A model generated the notes under the pieces. That model ran no database searches. It worked only from the letters and a program-made list of their open reading frames with translations, and was not told where the DNA came from. Position numbers and translations under genes: made by a program. Shown here one piece after another: positions 1,249-44,200 of a stretch of DNA of 64,000 nt. This DNA is from Escherichia phage PHB12. Numbering within the stretch: position 1 is the stretch's first letter; each line of letters opens with the position of its first letter. The DNA lies in sequence record MK524178.1; one strand, 5' to 3'.

Positions 1249-1290
1249 TTAATTTGATGTGGTCATTATAACCACATCGTGTTAAAGCGT

Positions 1291-5263: not shown

Positions 5264-5473
5264 TTATCTCATTAAATTAAAATAAAAACGTCCGTCCTCT
5301 TCAATGCAGAACTCGTACTCAACCGGAGTCCCATTTATCGAAAATGACACGTCGTGTGGGTTCAAAGGATCGATGTCAAAATTAATTTTAAATTCTCGAC
5401 CCAACAGTTTTACCAAATAAGGGATTGCTTCGTCAAAAGGTTCTTCTAAGTAGTTAGAGATATCAATTGTCAT
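5264..5473 (-). CDS. hypothetical protein
   Basis: ORF track gives 5264..5557; trimmed to an internal Met ([11 protein letters not shown]...) because the N-terminal part overlaps the gp55 coding end in another frame. Confidence 0.35.
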
Positions 5474-6020
5474 CCTCATATAAAAAATCCAAACTAGGCG
5501 AATCGCTAACAACTTCCTTCTTTTCAGCCCCAGGAGCTTTATAAGCGGATTCTTCATAATGCGTCATTTTATCGTAGATGTCTTGAATAAACGTTTCATC
5601 TACCAACGCTACCATATCATCGTCATGACTGTCGTAGACATTATGAACGAAGTAACTATATTTCTTTGCAACTTCCTTACGTTCTTTTTTGATACGTTGG
5701 ACAAAAGCATTAAAACAAGCTCGAGTTATGTATGCATGTGGGTTATTGTACTTAGTTTCGTCGAAATTATGAAGTCCCTTAATAGAGGCTTCAATCCCAT
5801 CTGCGATCATCTCCTGCTTCCAAGACTGGGTGTATCCTGAAAAGTTGAAACGTTTGGACAGGCCTTCGGCGATAAGCATAATTGCTAAACCGATGGTATC
5901 ATTCTGACGAATAATTTTGTTTGGGTCTTTATTATTTAAGAGCTCCTTTTTCCACTCGATTATAGCGGCGAGAAGCTCTTTATTATTCACATAGTTATTT
6001 TTAGGTTTTTGTTCAGTCAT
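5463..6020 (-). CDS. 55: late-transcription sigma factor gp55
   Basis: 185 aa; near-identical along its length to T4 gp55 as recalled ([17 protein letters not shown]...[31 protein letters not shown]...). Confidence 0.9.
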
Positions 6021-6403: not shown

Positions 6404-6762
6404 TTTACCGCCTTAACAATTTTCAGGTCAACGAATTTTTTCTTACGTTGATTTTTCATACGACGGATAGTCTTTTCAGAGATTTCATGTTTCTGATAAG
6501 CTTTAGATTCAACACCAAATGCAGCAACGTCAAATTCAGAAAGAATATATTGTACTAGAATTTCGCGAATAGAATTACGTCCAATTTTCTGGCCATGTTT
6601 TTGCATGATTTCATAAAGACGGAATTCCCACGCGTCAAGAACTTGAGGAGTAACAATATTGCCGGATTCCAGAAGAGCAACAACTTTATCGAAAGCGAAA
6701 GAATTAACTACGTTTTTGATTTTAGTAGACATATTATTTTCCTCGGTTATTTTATTATCCAA
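6400..6762 (-). CDS. hypothetical protein
   Basis: 120 aa ORF with basic C-terminal tail (RRMKNQRKKKF). Confidence 0.45.
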   Translation of the reverse strand: MDNKITEENNMSTKIKNVVNSFAFDKVVALLESGNIVTPQVLDAWEFRLYEIMQKHGQKIGRNSIREILVQYILSEFDVAAFGVESKAYQKHEISEKTIRRMKNQRKKKFVDLKIVKAVK

Positions 6763-6764
6763 CT

Positions 6765-6800
6765 AGAGAATTATACTCATCTCTCAAGAGTTGTATATTA
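6765..6800 (-). promoter_or_regulatory. early-type promoter with embedded hairpin (CTCTTGAGAG...GAGTATAAT cassette)
   Basis: Minus strand reads ACAACTCTTGAGAGATGAGTATAATTCTCTAGTTGG; closely related copy at 37090-37118. Confidence 0.5.
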
Positions 6801-7037
6801 TTTTTTAAGCATGAAAAGTAAGTAATTTGTATCACGTGGAGTGATATCAACACCCATATCAAAGATGCCTTTATAGATTGGGTATTTGTTTTCGGTTGTA
6901 TCGAAGCTGAAACTATTTCCATCACAACTAACAGTAATAGCATCTGTTAAAATGTCATACTCAATCCTAACAATTGAATCCCCAATTTTAACGTCGAGGT
7001 GTTTTTTGAATTTGATAAAATCTAATTCTTGGGCCAT
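6798..7037 (-). CDS. hypothetical protein
   Basis: 79 aa ORF. Confidence 0.4.
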   Translation of the reverse strand: MAQELDFIKFKKHLDVKIGDSIVRIEYDILTDAITVSCDGNSFSFDTTENKYPIYKGIFDMGVDITPRDTNYLLFMLKK

Positions 7038-7100
7038 GATATTTTCCTCATTTTAAGACGATAGGAAGATAATAACATGTCTTCCTATCGTTGTACATTA

Positions 7101-14624: not shown

Positions 14625-14653
14625 AATATTTTCCTCTCGTTAAGATAGAAAGA

Positions 14654-14682
14654 TTATACTCCAACCATCCTTGGTTGTAAAC
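14654..14682 (-). promoter_or_regulatory. early promoter (GTTTAC-17-TATAAT) with hairpin in spacer
   Basis: Minus strand GTTTACAACCAAGGATGGTTGGAGTATAAT; spacer carries inverted repeat CAACCA/TGGTTG; near-identical copy at 15643-15671. Confidence 0.6.
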
Positions 14683-14686
14683 TGAT

Positions 14687-15616
14687 TTATGATTTTAATG
14701 CATTCATTGCATTAAAAAGTTTAGAGTATTGCAACTGGAGTTTGGTAACTACTTGTTGAGCATCACGAAGCTTAGCTTGTGCTTTGTCAAGTTCAACAGA
14801 CAGTTGGTCCACAGTGGCTTTGATTTGATTATAATAGTAATCTTCGGCAGGAAGAAGACCGTTAGAGATTTCCAGTTTAGTCGACGGTGTGCCGTTAAAC
14901 ATAACAGGTTGTGCTGAAGCTGCATTAATCTTACCGATAGTCGGGGCGACAATAATTGACGCTTCGAACGTTGCATTTTCCTTTTTAAGATTTTGATAGT
15001 ATTCAGAGTCTTTGTGCCACCATGGCGCAGGAACCTTTTTACCAATAGATACACGAGCCTGGATAGCGATATGGCCCTTATTCTTGATAACGTCGATAAT
15101 ATTAAGCTCACGAGAATAAATTGCTTTAATCTGGTGGATATTATCACCTAACACTTCCAACGCTTGGTGGAATACACGAGCAACGTTATCATTCTTAGGT
15201 TTATACGTAAGAGTGAACTCGTTCTCACTGATAACCATGATTTCTAACTTATCGTAAGTATATTTCAAATGTTTCATGTTAATTGCTTGAGGACGAATAC
15301 GAGAAGCAATGGCCATCAGATTGTTAAGGTTATTCCGGAACTGCTTAGCGAAATATTGTCCTTCACCGCCAATACAAAAATTACGAAGTTTCTGTTTGGC
15401 TAATAAACGGCTGAACTCACCATTTTTAATGAACTCTTTAACGGGTGTGTTAGTAACGCATTCAAATTGAGTAAACTTACGAGAAGTAATCCCATAATAT
15501 GAACAGATTTCCTCAATCTCTTCAGGAGTCTTTACAGGCATACGGATAGGATTAGGACCTGGGGTATATGCGTTAGAGGTAAATTCTTTGATAAGTTCTC
15601 TACGTGTAATAGCCAT
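14687..15616 (-). CDS. hypothetical protein with C-terminal coiled coil (second of three)
   Basis: 309 aa; C-terminal coiled coil (DQLSVELDKAQAKLRDAQQVVTKLQLQYSKLFNAMNALKS). Confidence 0.5.
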   Translation of the reverse strand: MAITRRELIKEFTSNAYTPGPNPIRMPVKTPEEIEEICSYYGITSRKFTQFECVTNTPVKEFIKNGEFSRLLAKQKLRNFCIGGEGQYFAKQFRNNLNNLMAIASRIRPQAINMKHLKYTYDKLEIMVISENEFTLTYKPKNDNVARVFHQALEVLGDNIHQIKAIYSRELNIIDVIKNKGHIAIQARVSIGKKVPAPWWHKDSEYYQNLKKENATFEASIIVAPTIGKINAASAQPVMFNGTPSTKLEISNGLLPAEDYYYNQIKATVDQLSVELDKAQAKLRDAQQVVTKLQLQYSKLFNAMNALKS

Positions 15617-15642
15617 TTTATATTCCTCATGTTGAAAAATTT

Positions 15643-15671
15643 ATTATACTCCAACCATCCTTGGTTGTACA
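15643..15671 (-). promoter_or_regulatory. early promoter with hairpin in spacer (copy of the 14654-14682 cassette)
   Basis: Shares TTATACTCCAACCATCCTTGGTTGTA with the 14654 copy. Confidence 0.55.
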
Positions 15672-17667: not shown

Positions 17668-18669
17668 TTATTTCAGAAGTGTAACTTCAGAGATTTCCTC
17701 CCAACCGTCTTTATCAGTTGAAATAAAATCTGCTACATAAAGAGCCGTACGTAATGATACATTGCGAAGACGAGATACGTTAGCCTTCATCCAGGACAAT
17801 GCTTTATACGTTTCTGCATCTGTCAGACCACGTTTCTGCATCATGTCAGTAGATAATATTACATCTTCAACTCGAACCATAATCTCTTCATTAGAGTGTA
17901 CTCCAAGGTCGAGATACACTGAACGAGATACTAAAGCTTGAAGGTGCGGGGCAAGCTTCGAACCGCGTTCTAACTCTTTATCGATATCAACGTTTGTAAT
18001 GAAAACGATAGTACCTTCAAACACAAATTCTTTATCAATACCCTTATCATCGAGATAAGACGACGCAGTGCTCCAGCAAACTTTGCGTTTATCTCCAGTA
18101 TCTAATGCTGCTTTAAGAAGGTTCAAGATGTCCATATCCGAGAATACGTCAACGTCGTCGATTAAGAGAACGCTGTCTGCATCACGGTTGAGCCAAAGTT
18201 GTTCGTAAAGGCCTATACCAGAGATTTTACCATTAATGCTTTTGTATTTGATGAAACCGTTATCATTAGCATTATTAAGCGCTTTATCCAGAGAATACGT
18301 CTTACCAATACCTGCTGCACCTGAAATAATGAGTGAACGAATTTTGCCATCGATAATGCCATTCGTCATCATGTTCATTACTTTAAAGCGTTTGTTGATA
18401 CGAGTTTTCATATCTTCACTGCTTTCAACAACTGCAACTGGTGATGTCTCAGCTCCTTCCATTACGATGTCTGATTTGAAGACCCATACTCCACGTTCAG
18501 AACCATCAATCATAACGAAAATTTTACCATCACCTAAGTGGGAACATTCAGGATTAAGCTTTGCCGGGAACCATGTCTTTGTGGCAACATAAGAACCAGA
18601 GATTTCGTTATTACGATAGATACCTTTTTTGATTTGAACGTTGAACATTTTATTCTCCAATTTACTCAT
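17668..18669 (-). CDS. P-loop NTPase (Walker A/B) of unknown function
   Basis: 333 aa; Walker A GAAGIGKT and Walker B VLLIDDVD; about 100 aa N-terminal extension. Confidence 0.5.
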   Translation of the reverse strand: MSKLENKMFNVQIKKGIYRNNEISGSYVATKTWFPAKLNPECSHLGDGKIFVMIDGSERGVWVFKSDIVMEGAETSPVAVVESSEDMKTRINKRFKVMNMMTNGIIDGKIRSLIISGAAGIGKTYSLDKALNNANDNGFIKYKSINGKISGIGLYEQLWLNRDADSVLLIDDVDVFSDMDILNLLKAALDTGDKRKVCWSTASSYLDDKGIDKEFVFEGTIVFITNVDIDKELERGSKLAPHLQALVSRSVYLDLGVHSNEEIMVRVEDVILSTDMMQKRGLTDAETYKALSWMKANVSRLRNVSLRTALYVADFISTDKDGWEEISEVTLLK

Positions 18670-18717: not shown

Positions 18718-18936
18718 TTATTTGCGACGAGATTTTTTGGTAAGAGGTTGAAAGAACACTGCTTTACCTGCAGGAGTCAAAGTAACTCGTAATGCATTAC
18801 CGATTCCCAAGGATGCTTTAACAAGACCTTTAGATTTCAGTTCACCGAATGCTTGACGTTGGTCTGCATCACGAGTGTTAACCATAAGACCTTTATCACC
18901 AGCTTCACGAATCATTTCTAACATTTTGGTTTTCAT
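18718..18936 (-). CDS. small hypothetical protein (possible winged-helix fold)
   Basis: Track ORF 18718..18996 trimmed to the ATG preceded by GAGGAG (MKTKMLEMIREAGDKGLMVNTRD...); 72 aa. Confidence 0.4.
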   Translation of the reverse strand: MKTKMLEMIREAGDKGLMVNTRDADQRQAFGELKSKGLVKASLGIGNALRVTLTPAGKAVFFQPLTKKSRRK

Positions 18937-18964
18937 TTTGTTCTCCTCTTGTTTTGATAGGTCT

Positions 18965-21221: not shown

Positions 21222-21347
21222 TTTACCATACTCGTTTCAATAAGATTCACTATGCCGTTTACCATGTTATAAGTAAACATCGGATAATTGTATTGTACTA
21301 CAACATAAGCGATAAGCAAAAGTTTCATTTTGTTCTCCATTTGTTTT

Positions 21348-25573: not shown

Positions 25574-26032
25574 CTAGATTTTAATCACTGCTTTAGAAGC
25601 TTTTCCTGGTAGTCGTTTATTGTTAATAATAGCCATTCTGCATTGAAGAGTCTTCATTTTGAATGCTGGATTTTCACGACAAACTGTAAGTCCTAACCAA
25701 AGATTTCCATCAGTTATTTCTAAACGGCCTGGGCGATATTCGACACCTTCGACAAAATCTTCATCAACATCTGGACGGGCCGGCATTGATAAAAATTCTG
25801 CAACTTCTTTAACATGATTTTTTACTTTACGAAATAATTCAAAAACGTAGTTCTCATCTATTTCTCTCTGGATGGCACGATCTAAGAGATGTTGAGAATA
25901 CTTGATATGAAAGCCTGGTAGTCCAAGAGACTTTGCAGCATCTTTTATACCGGCATTTATTTTGCGGAACTCCGTTTCAAAGATTCGACGGAGTTTATTA
26001 CGGCGGATAAAAACGTCTGAATTGATAGTCAT
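25574..26032 (-). CDS. regB: RegB site-specific endoribonuclease
   Basis: 152 aa; MTINSDVFIRRNKLRRIFETEFRKIN...KYSQHLLDRAIQREIDE... matches T4 RegB as recalled. Confidence 0.85.
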   Translation of the reverse strand: MTINSDVFIRRNKLRRIFETEFRKINAGIKDAAKSLGLPGFHIKYSQHLLDRAIQREIDENYVFELFRKVKNHVKEVAEFLSMPARPDVDEDFVEGVEYRPGRLEITDGNLWLGLTVCRENPAFKMKTLQCRMAIINNKRLPGKASKAVIKI

Positions 26033-30769: not shown

Positions 30770-30771
30770 AA

Positions 30772-30795
30772 TACCTCCCACGTTTATAGGAGGTA
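30772..30795 (-). promoter_or_regulatory. gene e leader hairpin sequestering the Shine-Dalgarno, with late-promoter-like TATAAACG inside
   Basis: Inverted repeat TACCTCC/GGAGGTA (30772-30795); minus strand reads TACCTCC-TATAAACG-TGGGAGGTA-TT-ATG. Confidence 0.55.
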
Positions 30796-30803
30796 TTTAT
30801 TAC

Positions 30804-35870: not shown

Positions 35871-36426
35871 GGATTAAATTGTTAGTGAAATTAGGACTAA
35901 CAACCATAGTTTCATAAAGCGCATCAATAGCACTTAAAGCATCAACTCTTTTAAGCAAAGGCTTGCCTTCATACATAGTTTCAGAATCGACGATTAACGT
36001 AAAGTAGTATTTTTTATTATCGACTAGAACTTCTGTATCGATATAAAACATATTAGACCTCAGAAGCTTATCTCTAAAACCATAATAATCTTCAGAGCGT
36101 TCGCTGATATATTCCAATTCAGTGTTTAAACAACAAACAGACCACGTAGGAGCAACGAAATCAGTGAATCTAATATCATGGTCTGCAACTAGTTTAGCAA
36201 TAGCTCCGATATCATTAATCATGATACCTGGGGCTAATAAAGATTTTCGGTTATTTGCATATTCAGTTGTCTCATAAGAAGCTGACCAGTACCATTTACG
36301 TCCGGTTGCAACATATCGTAATGAATCGACTAAAGACGTAGGTGGATTTACCTTATCTCGGAACTCTTCGAACATTGAGTCAATATCATTATTTTGGTTT
36401 CGCATGTTAACTCCTTTATTATCCAA
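35809..36426 (-). CDS. hypothetical protein
   Basis: 205 aa ORF. Confidence 0.45.
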   Translation of the reverse strand: MDNKGVNMRNQNNDIDSMFEEFRDKVNPPTSLVDSLRYVATGRKWYWSASYETTEYANNRKSLLAPGIMINDIGAIAKLVADHDIRFTDFVAPTWSVCCLNTELEYISERSEDYYGFRDKLLRSNMFYIDTEVLVDNKKYYFTLIVDSETMYEGKPLLKRVDALSAIDALYETMVVSPNFTNNLILEQFIMECREYVKANPIHAN

Positions 36427-36428
36427 AA

Positions 36429-36446
36429 GGAGGACCGGAGTCCTCC
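36429..36446 (-). terminator. hairpin terminator (GGAGGAC-CGGA-GTCCTCC), possibly bidirectional
   Basis: Perfect 7-bp stem; followed by T-rich sequence on both strands (TTTTGG on minus). Confidence 0.55.
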
Positions 36447-36454
36447 GTATTATT

Positions 36455-37048
36455 TTATTTCAAAGAGTTAATATATTCTTGTACATCAGCAGAAGTGGTT
36501 TCGACACCGGCTGGAGTGCCGTTGAACGTTTCAACACGAGTCAGAGTGTCTTCGATATCAACCTTAGTCAGTGCAGCAATTTCAATCACATCATCAGCCG
36601 TAGAGATACCAAGAGCATTGGCTGCTCGAGTTTCACGAATGTATTCGAGTTTGATTGCCAGATTCTGACGAGCGTCATCAAGTTCAACCACCTTACGAGC
36701 AATTTCAATTCGCATAGCGGCGTACCCGTCAGCTTTTGTATTAAGTTGTTCGGCAGTTCGACGATACAGAAGACCAAGCTTAGCATGCATGGTAACATCT
36801 TGTCCTTCAGCCAAGAGCTTACGAATTTCACGTTCCTTAGAAGCGGCTTGCTTGTTCTTTTCATTAACAAGTTCGCGAATACGTTTTTCTTCATTAATAG
36901 ATTTAATAGAAGCCGTTTTTAGTTCTTTGATTTGGGTAATCAACTTATCTGCAGCTGCGTTATACTGTTCTTCGACAGTCAGATTTTTAGCCATAGCAGT
37001 ACCCAGTTTAGTGCGGATGAATTCAACAAGTTTCTTCAGTGTGTTCAT
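36455..37048 (-). CDS. coiled-coil protein
   Basis: Start set at ATG 37046-37048 ([10 protein letters not shown]...); about 197 aa predicted helical/coiled coil throughout. Confidence 0.45.
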
Positions 37049-37089
37049 ATTATTACCTTTCAATTGGTGGTTTATTATCCAATGAGAGC

Positions 37090-37118
37090 ATTATACTCTG
37101 CTCTCAAGAGTTTGTAAA
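37090..37118 (-). promoter_or_regulatory. early promoter TTTACA-17-TATAAT with -10 inside hairpin loop (copy of the 6765-6800 cassette)
   Basis: Minus strand TTTACAAACTCTTGAGAGCAGAGTATAATGCTCTCATTGG; inverted repeat TGAGAGCA/TGCTCTCA. Confidence 0.6.
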
Positions 37119-37346
37119 TTATTTTTTAATCAAATTGACATAAAATTCTGCATCTTCAGGGTGCATGCCTTCGCAGTATTCTTCAACCATGAACTTCTTA
37201 ACAGCTTCATAAGGGCCACTCAGATTAAGCTTGGTTGTCCAGAACTTGGAATCTTGGGCTGAATCGATACGAACTTCAGGGTGACGGTTGCGAATAACTT
37301 CTTCAGTGTATTCATAATCAACGACATCAATACTAACTGTAGCCAT
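37119..37346 (-). CDS. hypothetical protein
   Basis: 75 aa acidic ORF. Confidence 0.4.
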   Translation of the reverse strand: MATVSIDVVDYEYTEEVIRNRHPEVRIDSAQDSKFWTTKLNLSGPYEAVKKFMVEEYCEGMHPEDAEFYVNLIKK

Positions 37347-38349: not shown

Positions 38350-38426
<77 letters not shown>

Positions 38427-38432
38427 CGAATA

Positions 38433-38506
38433 TATGACCCAGACCAGATTCGAACTGGTAACCTTTCCCTTATGAGGGGACTGCTGCTAACCGTTGAGCT
38501 ACAGGG
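38433..38506 (-). tRNA. tRNA with CAT anticodon (Met or lysidine-type Ile)
   Basis: Hand-folded: acceptor GGCCCTG/CTGGGTC (one mismatch), anticodon loop CTCATAA, T-arm ACCAG-TTCGAAT-CTGGT; D-stem has one C-C mismatch. Confidence 0.6.
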
Positions 38507-38587
38507 CCTAAATAACTTTCTATTATGAAAGGCACTTTAGAGCACCTTTGGTAATAGAGGGTATGAATTAATAATAACACATAATTC

Positions 38588-39758: not shown

Positions 39759-39944
39759 TTACTCACCTTTTGCAATTTTATCCATAACGATAGCGATTAA
39801 GCCGATTAGAAATGCTACTACCAATGAGATAGAGTTTTCGGTTGTTGTCAGTAGTCCACAAATGAATCCTACAAACATCGAAAAACTAAAAGCCATTGAA
39901 GCAATTACTACAGCAACATTACGAATCAGTTCAGCGCGTTTCAT
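39759..39944 (-). CDS. small membrane protein
   Basis: Start at ATG after GGAGA (MKRAELIRNVAVVIASMAF...); two hydrophobic segments; about 61 aa. Confidence 0.35.
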   Translation of the reverse strand: MKRAELIRNVAVVIASMAFSFSMFVGFICGLLTTTENSISLVVAFLIGLIAIVMDKIAKGE

Positions 39945-39971
39945 TTTATTCTCCATTTACTCATTTGTTTT

Positions 39972-42205: not shown

Positions 42206-42796
42206 TTAGCGCAAGGAAGGGTGTCTAGAAATGGATTTAGATTCGGCAGCCTGACGTGGTTGTTGAGATACAATGACTTCGCCATCCTTTTCTATCGTCA
42301 TATACGCGTAATGAATAGTTGCTACGCAAGTAACGGCAGGGTCAGAGTCTTCAGTGTAACTAAATTCAATTTCGCTCAAATCGGAAATCCATGGTTTATA
42401 GAAATTTGCCGTCAAAACCACTTCAGTCTTATTGTTGTTTAAAATGTGCAAAGTAACAAACTCAGGACCATCGGAGTGGGCCGTATTATGTCCGGTTATA
42501 TAGTTATTAGTGCTGAGCATCCATTTATACATGTTCATCCAGGACGTCATGTCTTCATCAACTATAAATCGTACAATAAAGGGGTCATATTCAAATGTAG
42601 TGCCTGCACGCATTGCACGCCCTAACCCCATTGTGCCTGTCACAGTTTCAACAACAGGAATTCTCACACCTGGCAACGGCGCTGTTTGGGCATTGAGCAC
42701 AAAACCTGAAGTTCGTGTACTATCCGGGATATCCACAACAAAGTTTGTTATATTTGTTTGATTAAAAATCTGTCTCGCTGGACGAGTCATAAGCAC
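42206..42796 (-). CDS. 3: tail completion / sheath stabiliser gp3
   Basis: FVLNAQTAPLPGVRIPVVETVTGTMGLGRAMRAGTTFEYDP... matches T4 gp3 as recalled; between genes 1 and 2; exact start uncertain. Confidence 0.8.
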   Translation of the reverse strand: MLMTRPARQIFNQTNITNFVVDIPDSTRTSGFVLNAQTAPLPGVRIPVVETVTGTMGLGRAMRAGTTFEYDPFIVRFIVDEDMTSWMNMYKWMLSTNNYITGHNTAHSDGPEFVTLHILNNNKTEVVLTANFYKPWISDLSEIEFSYTEDSDPAVTCVATIHYAYMTIEKDGEVIVSQQPRQAAESKSISRHPSLR

Positions 42797-44177: not shown

Positions 44178-44200
44178 TATAAATAGTATTATTATTTATA
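44178..44200. promoter_or_regulatory. divergent T4-type late promoters (TATAAATA on each strand)
   Basis: Plus-strand TATAAATA at 44178-44185 (toward gene 53) and TATTTATA at 44193-44200 (rc, toward gene 4). Confidence 0.65.

Follow-up and report, generated by a model that had tools for sequence, protein, structure and literature searches.

Two short blocks on the minus strand of Escherichia phage PHB12 (GenBank acc. no. MK524178.1), each lying in front of a different small gene, are strikingly alike, and in each of them a predicted promoter, an inverted repeat, and a further conserved box follow one another. The question is what kind of element they represent and whether their parts belong together. 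The window analysed here is the whole 64,000-nt stretch of this record, which comes from an RB69-like Mosigvirus, i.e., a T-even phage; the DNA at both sites is 97–99% identical to that of many Mosigvirus (RB69-like, T-even) genomes. The minus strand of the window carries genes from ca. 1 to 43 kb, among them gene 55 and regB (Table 1). A search of the 64-kb window against Rfam at gathering thresholds returned two tRNAs only and no match at either cassette site.

A pattern shared by the two sites, described in a sequence-only reading of this DNA, CTCTTGAGAG-NN-GAGTATAAT-N-CTCT-NN-TTGGATAATAAA, has just two occurrences in the window, 6751-6790(-) and 37071-37110(-), vs 0 expected by chance (100 shuffles). 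The gaps which that reading had marked simply as N are present, with true lengths of 2, 1, and 2 nt, and its coordinates (6765-6800 and 37090-37118) overlap both sites but are too short, the full blocks occupying 6751-6808 and 37071-37129. Each block begins with TTAAAAAATAA, in which the upstream ORF has its stop codon, and ends with TTGGATAATAAA; it is composed of the A-tract with this stop, the -35 hexamer, the spacer, TATAAT, the second repeat arm, and the TTGGATAATAAA box, in this order, with a Shine-Dalgarno sequence and an ATG 18–34 nt beyond the box. When the copies are aligned with their flanks, as had been suggested, the blocks are identical at 52 of 59 positions (88%) with a single 1-nt gap, and the proteins encoded on either side of the two blocks show no relationship. 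A distance of 30,320 bp separates the copies, in agreement with the ca. 30 kb given before, and they precede unrelated genes, the 55.2 and e.6 homologues. Their likeness extends beyond what the promoter consensus imposes: at the 36 non-consensus positions compared (16 nt of the spacer and 20 nt downstream) they match at 30, the mean for the 153 pairs formed by the 18 predicted minus-strand early promoters of the window being 15.7 +/- 5.3 (sd), and they are the most alike of all these pairs.

Table 1. Features of the two cassette copies and of their surroundings (positions in the window)
Feature	Position	Strand	Details
Copy 1 of the cassette (full block), preceding the 55.2 homologue	6751-6808	-	52/59 identical to copy 2
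Copy 1, A-rich UP-like tract TTAAAAAATAA	6798-6808	-	encodes LKK and the TAA stop (6798-6800) of the 79-aa ORF
Copy 1, -35 TATACA	6792-6797	-	spacer 16 nt here, 17 nt in relatives
Copy 1, -10 TATAAT	6770-6775	-	predicted start ~6763-6764
Copy 1, inverted repeat AGAGA (6780-6784) / TCTCT (6765-6769)	6765-6784	-	5 bp, brackets the -10
Copy 1, outer helix	CAACT 6789-6793 / AGTTG 6760-6764	-	
Copy 1, candidate RegB site GGATAATAAAA	6750-6760	-	11/11 vs RegB/S1 consensus GG*A(G/U)RAYARAA; within TTGGATAATAAA box 6751-6762
Downstream gene of copy 1, 55.2 homologue, 110 aa	6400-6732	-	Shine-Dalgarno GAGG 6741-6744, ATG 6732
Upstream neighbour of copy 1, 79-aa ORFan (RB69ORF075c homologue)	6798-7037	-	
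Neighbouring cassette, same architecture, different stem	7058-7097	-	12-bp repeat ACGATAGGAAGA/TCTTCCTATCGT (7058-7091)
Neighbouring cassette, promoter hexamers	-35 TGTACA 7092-7097; -10 TATTAT 7069-7074	-	
Copy 2 of the cassette (full block), preceding the e.6 homologue	37071-37129	-	52/59 identical to copy 1
Copy 2, -35 TTTACA	37113-37118	-	spacer 17 nt
Copy 2, -10 TATAAT	37090-37095	-	predicted start ~37083
Copy 2, 8-bp inverted repeat TGAGAGCA (37099-37106) / TGCTCTCA (37083-37090)	37083-37106	-	loop GAGTATAA
Copy 2, candidate RegB site GGATAATAAAC	37070-37080	-	10/11 vs RegB/S1 consensus; within TTGGATAATAAA box 37071-37082
Downstream gene of copy 2, e.6 homologue, 197 aa from ATG at 37048	36455-37048	-	AAGG ~37056-37059
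Upstream neighbour of copy 2, 75-aa frd.3-like ORF	37119-37346	-	ends ...LIKK-TAA in the cassette A-tract
Third TTGGATAATAAA box (36415-36426), between e.6 and e.5	36415-36446	-	directly after a terminator hairpin
Intrinsic terminator GGAGGAC-tccg-GTCCTCC-TTTT	36429-36446	-	T-run present; 650 nt from the cassette
Late sigma factor gene 55	5463-6020	-	
regB, endoribonuclease proposed as cutter of the TTGGATAATAAA box	25574-26032	-	PF10715, E = 5e-69

Judging by their anatomy and their homologues, both copies are probably sigma-70 early promoters. They display the T4-type features, i.e., an A-rich UP-like sequence AAAAAATAA followed by a GTTTAC-like -35 region, (A)TTTACA or (A)TATACA, and a consensus scan ranks them as the top promoter-like sites of their neighbourhoods (10/12 matches in copy 1 and 11/12 in copy 2), so that the minus-strand promoters proposed before are predicted here as well. 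The starts given in Table 1 follow from the usual distance of 7 nt after the -10 hexamer. The 11-mer TTAAAAAATAA of copy 2 likewise ends an ORF, the unrelated frd.3-like one (TAA 37119-37121). T4 early promoters have been described as UP/-35/TGn/-10 'uber' promoters with further conserved regions; the consensus scan found no TGn extended -10 in either copy, TATAAT being preceded by GAG in both, and the TGn is common among such promoters without being required, that of T4 motB likewise lacking it. Nolan et al. 2006 predicted 58 early promoters in RB69 with an HMM, of which Pe:72069 (e.6) and Pe:165022 (ndd) cover exact copies of the CTCTTGAGAG core and Pe:42515 covers the 55.2 copy, which in RB69 reads CTCTCGAGAG. 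Two GenBank records label the homologue of site 2 'promoter'. Site 1 of the window has several weaknesses: the 16-nt spacer, the weaker -35 hexamer TATACA, and a partly eroded stem. Other promoter types were considered and rejected, since neither the MotA motif of middle promoters (TGCTTtA at -30) nor the late gp55 motif (TATAAATA) is present in the blocks, and so was the use of TTGGATAATAAA as a second -10 (GATAAT), whose best -35-like hexamer, TTGAGA, lies 22 nt off (by inspection). A search of the available literature found no genome-wide map of transcript 5' and 3' ends for T4 or RB69.

The -10 hexamer had been claimed to lie in the loop of a hairpin. An inverted repeat does bracket it in both copies, strongly at site 2, with fold z-scores of -3.4 (DNA) and -4.0 (RNA), and at site 1 only weakly, with z-scores of -2.4 (DNA) and -1.2 (RNA). 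In relatives, site 1 has a 6-bp GAGAGA/TCTCTC stem and a 17-nt spacer, from which the window differs by a 1-nt deletion and a C->A change. The second arm begins at the last T of the -10 hexamer, in a fixed register. This arrangement is not confined to the two copies: a perfect repeat of at least 6 bp surrounds the -10 in 9 of the 18 window promoters vs 7.4% of the other 1015 TATAAT-like hexamers (p ~2e-6), and one of at least 8 bp in 6 of the 18 vs 1.8%; a near-identical genome has a repeat of the former kind at 22 of its 40 promoters. In an unbiased list of all short-loop inverted repeats, the promoter-bracketing ones form a major class beside true terminators. The stems themselves vary between promoters (ATAGGACT, GATAGGAAGA, AGGTCTAT, GAGAGC), and upstream of e.6 the promoters of different T-even lineages are unrelated to one another, and every one of them is bracketed by a repeat of its own, which is ATTAGA/TCTAAT in T4-like contigs and AGGCTCAT/ATGAGCCT in others. 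A cassette of the same architecture with yet another stem is the nearest neighbour of copy 1 on the far side of the 79-aa ORFan; one GenBank record calls its hairpin (7058-7091) 'terminator'. The stem around the -10 is a general and selected feature of these promoters.

Composite elements of this kind have been described before. The available parts of Arbiol et al. 2010 (PMC2839356) report PeSLs (promoter-early stem-loops) in phages RB49 and phi1, in which a promoter is combined with a stem-loop that lies mostly between its -35 and -10 or across the latter, preceded by an AT-rich tract that contains the stop of the upstream gene and followed by a Shine-Dalgarno sequence and an ATG; recombination between PeSLs was proposed to shuffle the small ORFs that they flank. 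In the same portions of that paper activity, attenuation or termination, and mini-circles are shown for selected RB49/phi1 elements only, the sole direct test of terminator activity having been made on a G/C-rich RB49 stem. As far as the accessible text of Comeau et al. 2014 (PMC4122927) goes, PeSLs were extended there to PST/T4 and nt-1/KVP40, those of T-even phages being built on T4 early promoters and having weaker, more AT-rich stems. Both blocks of the window have the parts of a PeSL: a promoter (TATACA-16-TATAAT and TTTACA-17-TATAAT), the AT-rich tract TTAAAAAATAA with the upstream stop (TAA 6798-6800 and 37119-37121), a stem-loop at the promoter (8 bp at site 2 and 5+5 bp at site 1, weak in the window), and a Shine-Dalgarno sequence with a start codon at the 3' end; they also exist in multiple copies, next to ORFans, and at indel end-points. 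In being intergenic, composite, and repeated, and in their position by small ORFans at the ends of indels, they resemble the PeSLs of RB49/phi1, PST/T4, and nt-1/KVP40 as portrayed in the sections available, and they differ in the stems, which are polyG/polyC in RB49 and of the 'AGNA-loop-TCNT' type in PST/T4, and here of the (G)AGAG(C/A) or GGGACC types. Morons of lambdoid phages, in the available descriptions, are comparable as small genes bringing their own promoter and terminator, but are not bounded by a conserved repeated cassette able to mediate exchange. Both blocks are probably PeSL-type early-promoter cassettes that form a sequence subfamily within the class to which the ATAGGACTA type also belongs. 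The view that the two types are distinct families therefore holds at the level of sequence, where each is a subfamily of its own, and not at that of architecture, where both are PeSLs. The element is one of a described class, promoter predictions for its counterparts in RB69 date from 2006, and it is largely ordinary; the accessible portions of the two PeSL papers (PMC2839356 and PMC4122927) do not cover the Mosigvirus/RB69 lineage.

A driving part in the shuffling of genes within the plastic regions of T4-like genomes has been ascribed to the PeSL class, and two concrete examples of indels ending inside cassettes can now be added. The 79-aa ORFan, absent from T4, has a promoter-hairpin cassette on either side. 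T4 lacks the whole segment consisting of the cassette at 7074, the ORFan, and the cassette at 6775; it has a terminator there, followed by TTGGATAATAAAAT, and its homology to the window resumes exactly at TTGGATAATAAAAT (these junctions were read by eye, MAFFT having misplaced the short T4 sequence). The second example is contig L010, which carries an extra 93-aa ORF and a different cassette upstream of the site-2 homologue, the switch falling within the -35 region. The pattern fits PeSL-mediated shuffling, which would be the mechanism behind it.

The behaviour of the stem across the family bears on its role. IMG/VR was scanned with CTCTTG-N6-GAGTATAAT, both stem arms being left free, and 35 distinct matches were found behind a -35-like hexamer in T-even contigs. 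All six core stem positions pair in 34 of these 35 vs 1 of 57 matches outside a promoter context. In an alignment of 20 sequences 97.5% of the cells are paired and four of the eight pairs show compensatory double changes (21 cells); none of 500 shuffles reaches the observed pairing or covariation, and sliding the partner by 1–3 columns lowers the pairing to 34–52%. Pairing of the stem is thus conserved across the cassette family. The element had been noted in two distant copies, but it is not confined to two: the near-identical phage vB_EQ1 has four, in front of 55.2, e.6, ndd, and, in the pseT region, a small gene, BLAST finds four cassette places per Mosigvirus record, and members of the type CTCTTG-stem-GAGTATAAT-stem' are widespread among T-even phages. 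Apart from the number of copies and the points of detail mentioned, the earlier reading of paired promoter-hairpin cassettes is essentially right. One member of the type is the promoter of motB, an established early gene in T4. It has the same core, consisting of GTTTACAAACTCTTG, a 6-nt arm, AGAGTATAAT, and the complementary arm, followed by GGAGUAUAAAA, and it carries GTTTACAAACTCTTGGGACCAGAGTATAATGGTCCC, which amounts to two compensatory double changes relative to site 2. It differs in the stem (GGGACC/GGTCCC vs GAGAGC/GCTCTC here), in the downstream gene, and in the box, which has GGAG vs GGAU in the window copies.

The imperfect pairs in the family are all G·T on the sense strand, with no A·C, and in the compact ATAGGACTA-type hairpins of the near-identical genome G·T occurs 5 times and A·C never; this asymmetry, resting on ca. 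11 non-independent events, suggests that the stem folds as an RNA hairpin of the sense strand. Since transcription from the cassette itself would begin near the final base of the 3' arm, the whole hairpin can be present only in RNA that reads through from the upstream gene, which fits the attenuator or insulator role proposed for PeSL stem-loops. A structure in the DNA itself, a hairpin or cruciform at the -10 that aids promoter opening or offers a structure-specific target for shuffling or shut-off (e.g., to endonuclease VII or the recombination machinery), would account for the fixed register of the repeat, whose 3' arm starts from the last T of the -10. Yet every G·T on the sense strand is an A·C on the other, so that a symmetric cruciform is not what has been conserved, and extrusion of stems as short as 6–12 bp with loops of 8–10 nt is energetically costly; a DNA-level role is therefore unlikely. 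Nor would the bias be expected of a palindrome bound by a protein, though it would be of a sense-strand RNA hairpin. What is gained for the PeSL class is the family-wide covariation of the stem, by which the stem around the -10 appears to be selected as a structure, most likely in RNA. Neither stem covariation, nor the sense-strand wobble bias, nor an embedded RegB site was found in the accessible parts of the PeSL papers PMC2839356 and PMC4122927.

The TTGGATAATAAA box lies outside the promoter and the hairpin and is predicted to be a cleavage site of RegB/S1, a reading that draws on its match to the consensus, on the regB gene encoded by the phage, and on the cleavage of 55.2 and motB.2 in T4. 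The RegB/S1 target has been given as GG*AGRAYARAA, with GGAG/U cut in intergenic regions of early genes (Durand et al. 2006, PMC1702504; Uzan & Miller 2010, PMC3014915); RB69 RegB is reported to be diverged from that of T4. The single mismatch at site 2 is a C at position 11. The motif GGAKRAYARAA occurs 7 times in the window vs 1.05 expected, 6 of the 7 on the early strand, the occurrences at 18648, 18936, 21328, and 39944 lying in or near Shine-Dalgarno regions of early genes. In the family, a related box begins 9–10 nt past the -10 in every one of 12 contexts and keeps 8–11 of 11 matches to the RegB consensus, the sequence beyond it diverging completely, and part of this conservation could be inheritance, as the family members share ancestry. 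The target calls for an unpaired GGA(G/U); in predicted folds, weak outer helices take up part of the GGA at either site, and it is free in the site-2 centroid. The box was also considered as a translation element and rejected, its distance to the Shine-Dalgarno sequence being 0, 6, and 11 nt in the three copies of the window and thus inconsistent.

The box connects the PeSL subfamily with the best-studied RegB substrate. The motB RNA is the model substrate of Durand et al. 2006 (PMC1702504), and the site in it is GGAGUAUAAAA, the box of the T4 motB cassette, as fixed by the substitutions made in that work. Of 30 intergenic T4 GGAU sequences tested there (PMC1702504), only those of 55.2 and motB.2 were cut. 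GGAUAAUAAAA, identical to window 6750-6760, is present both in the Shine-Dalgarno region of T4 motB.2 and in the T4 55.2 leader. A further GGAU of T4 55.2 lies in the Shine-Dalgarno sequence, GGAUAAUGUAU; the box is probably the one cut, since it alone has the 'strict A-rich consensus' that GGAU needs. The box of site 1 is the positional orthologue of this T4 site, and the TTGGATAATAAA box can be named as a predicted RegB site common to the motB and 55.2 substrates. Known RegB sites mostly coincide with Shine-Dalgarno sequences, whereas here the predicted site is in the leader, at ca. +3 to +13, upstream of the Shine-Dalgarno sequence and directly 3' of a hairpin. The order of hairpin and box is repeated at 36415-36446, where the hairpin is a plain terminator, and in the same way in the upstream region of T4 55.2.

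With the stem and the box both described, it can be asked whether either has a function at all, as the two copies could be ordinary early promoters whose likeness stems from a recent duplication or gene conversion, the repeat and the box being carried along without a role. Their 88% identity clearly speaks of common ancestry, and the erosion of the stem and the loss of 1 nt are tolerated at site 1 of the window. Mere hitch-hiking is nevertheless rather improbable, for the stem changes while its pairing is kept, with compensation in four of the eight pairs and the 34/35 vs 1/57 ratio against controls, the box retains its 8–11 RegB matches in a fixed register where the sequence after it diverges, and half of the other early promoters have the -10 enclosed by stems of unrelated sequence. 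That the hairpins are canonical Rho-independent terminators merely overlapping promoters would agree with the proposal of PeSL stem-loops as terminators, shown for one RB49 case in the parts of PMC2839356 available, and with the label given to the neighbouring 7058-7091 hairpin in GenBank. The sequences 3' of the hairpins are, however, AUUGGAUAA and AGUUGGAUA, with a T-run after neither, and a terminator scan calls neither site, the true terminator (36429-36446) being 650 nt away; since no U-run would follow them in RNA, the hairpins are not canonical intrinsic terminators, and this explanation is very improbable. That the repeat is an operator, bound by a dimeric regulator of the phage or the host, is scarcely credible, since, ideal as the overlap with the -10 would be for repression and even with the perfect palindrome CTCTCGAGAG adjoining in RB69, the arms differ from cassette to cassette (GAGAGC, GGGACC, GGGGTC, ATAGGACT, GATAGGAAGA, and others) and only their complementarity is conserved.

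A working scheme can be drawn up for the sense-strand RNA hairpin and the RegB box, its functional steps leaning on sequence and on experiments made in T4 or RB49. The cassette would be a PeSL-type unit of ca. 60 bp placed on the minus strand between two small early genes and built of four layers. The promoter would fire on host RNA polymerase right after infection, the transcript starting ca. 7 nt after the -10. The hairpin, with one arm in the spacer and the other reaching from the last T of the -10 to ca. +1, would form only in read-through RNA and might serve as an attenuator, as a protector of the 3' end, or as both. The box, (T)GGA(G/U)(A/U)AUAAA, 9–10 nt after the -10, would be cut by RegB once this enzyme has been made. 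In the new transcript RegB would clip only 3–5 nt from the 5' end and leave a 5'-OH, to be phosphorylated by T4 PNK, after which RNase G/E would degrade the RNA; in read-through RNA it would also cut just 3' of the hairpin. The fourth layer would be the portability of the whole unit, seen in paralogous copies before unrelated genes and in gene insertions and deletions between relatives that end inside cassettes.

Cleavage by RegB yields 5'-OH and 3'-phosphate ends; the downstream piece becomes open to RNase G/E through the action of PNK, and the upstream piece is exposed to possible attack by RNase II/R, so a stem just 5' of the cut would be well placed to protect the upstream message. We tentatively propose, as a possibility and not as the expected outcome, that the hairpin and the RegB box make up one RNA-processing module within a mobile early promoter. 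RegB would then cut 1–3 nt after the hairpin, leaving the upstream cistron with a protective 3' stem and the downstream cistron with a 5'-OH end that leads, through PNK and RNase G/E, to rapid decay, and the same cut in the cassette's own transcript would strip the 5' triphosphate within the first few nucleotides. Such a module would explain the placement of the -10 within a loop, the covariation of the stems with its wobble bias to the sense strand, and the presence of the box after plain terminators as well; if the proposal is true, the cassette is a portable 'switch on now, decay on schedule, insulate the neighbour' device. Simple mutants can now be used to test what has been proposed for PeSL hairpins, which may attenuate transcription or protect 3' ends, and for RegB sites in leaders. 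Automatic annotation could gain as well, since hairpins of this kind are labelled inconsistently in GenBank, as 'promoter' in some records and as 'terminator' in another.

A third promoter subfamily, in which the spacer ACCAAGGATGGTTGG-AG-TATAAT is common to all copies listed in the table, carries a small hairpin, AACCA-agga-TGGTT, between the -35 and -10 elements. In one copy of vB_EQ1, a near-identical genome, the hairpin reads ATCCA-agga-TGGAT, a compensatory change. A cassette related to this subfamily adjoins the homologue of copy 2 (the cassette upstream of the e.6 homologue) in the contig L010. The labelling of promoter-hairpin cassettes in public annotation is inconsistent: the homologue of copy 2 is labelled as a promoter in other GenBank records, while the promoter-embedded hairpin at 1510-1553 of L002 (phage SA79RD), the equivalent of 7058-7097 in the window, is labelled in one record as a rho-independent terminator. 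The 55.2 copy of RB69 (L033, 680-700(-); about 42480-42500 in RB69) is CTCTCGAGAG, a perfect 10-bp palindrome with an XhoI site inside, versus CTCTTGAGAG in other Mosigviruses.

At 1256-1278(-), a TATAAT is bracketed by the 8-bp repeat GATGTGGT/ACCACATC, with a MotA-box-like CGCTTTA 12 nt upstream; it is possibly a middle-promoter counterpart ("PmSL") of the promoter-early stem-loop (PeSL) class, a kind reported to date from nt-1 only. At 14693-14717(-), the 10-bp repeat TTTTAATGCA/TGCATTAAAA directly precedes the -35 element of the 14658 promoter, a layout that matches the subclass of PeSLs whose stem falls inside the AT-rich tract. The palindrome TATAAATA-gtattat-TATTTATA (44178-44200), close to a switch in gene orientation, yields two back-to-back late-promoter motifs of opposite directions.

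A 9-bp hairpin, AATACCTCC...GGAGGTATT (30770-30797(-)), is predicted to sequester the Shine-Dalgarno sequence that directly precedes the start codon (ATG) of the homologue of the lysozyme gene e (product MNIFEMLR...), similarly to the known arrangement in T4 gene e. At 36411-36446(-), the 3' arm and T-tract (CTCCTTT) of the e.6 terminator could pair alternatively with the e.5 Shine-Dalgarno region (AAAGGAG), which would place a RegB-like GGATAAT in the loop. Perfect matches to the RegB consensus, GGAGAAYAAAA, lie within or near early-gene Shine-Dalgarno regions, downstream of promoters of the ATAGGACTA type and related ones.

Locations of promoters, RegB-consensus 11-mers and tRNA genes
Feature	Location	Strand	Remark
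Third-subfamily promoter	14640-14680	minus	
Third-subfamily promoter	15630-15670	minus	
Third-subfamily promoter	vB_EQ1 131306		
Third-subfamily promoter	vB_EQ1 131863		
RegB 11-mer	18648-18658	minus	
RegB 11-mer	18936-18946	minus	
RegB 11-mer	21328-21338	minus	
RegB 11-mer	39944-39954	minus	
tRNA-Arg(tct), tRNA-Met(cat)	38352-38508	minus	ca. 1.2 kb upstream of copy 2

The corresponding region of T4 comprises eight tRNA genes, together with segB.
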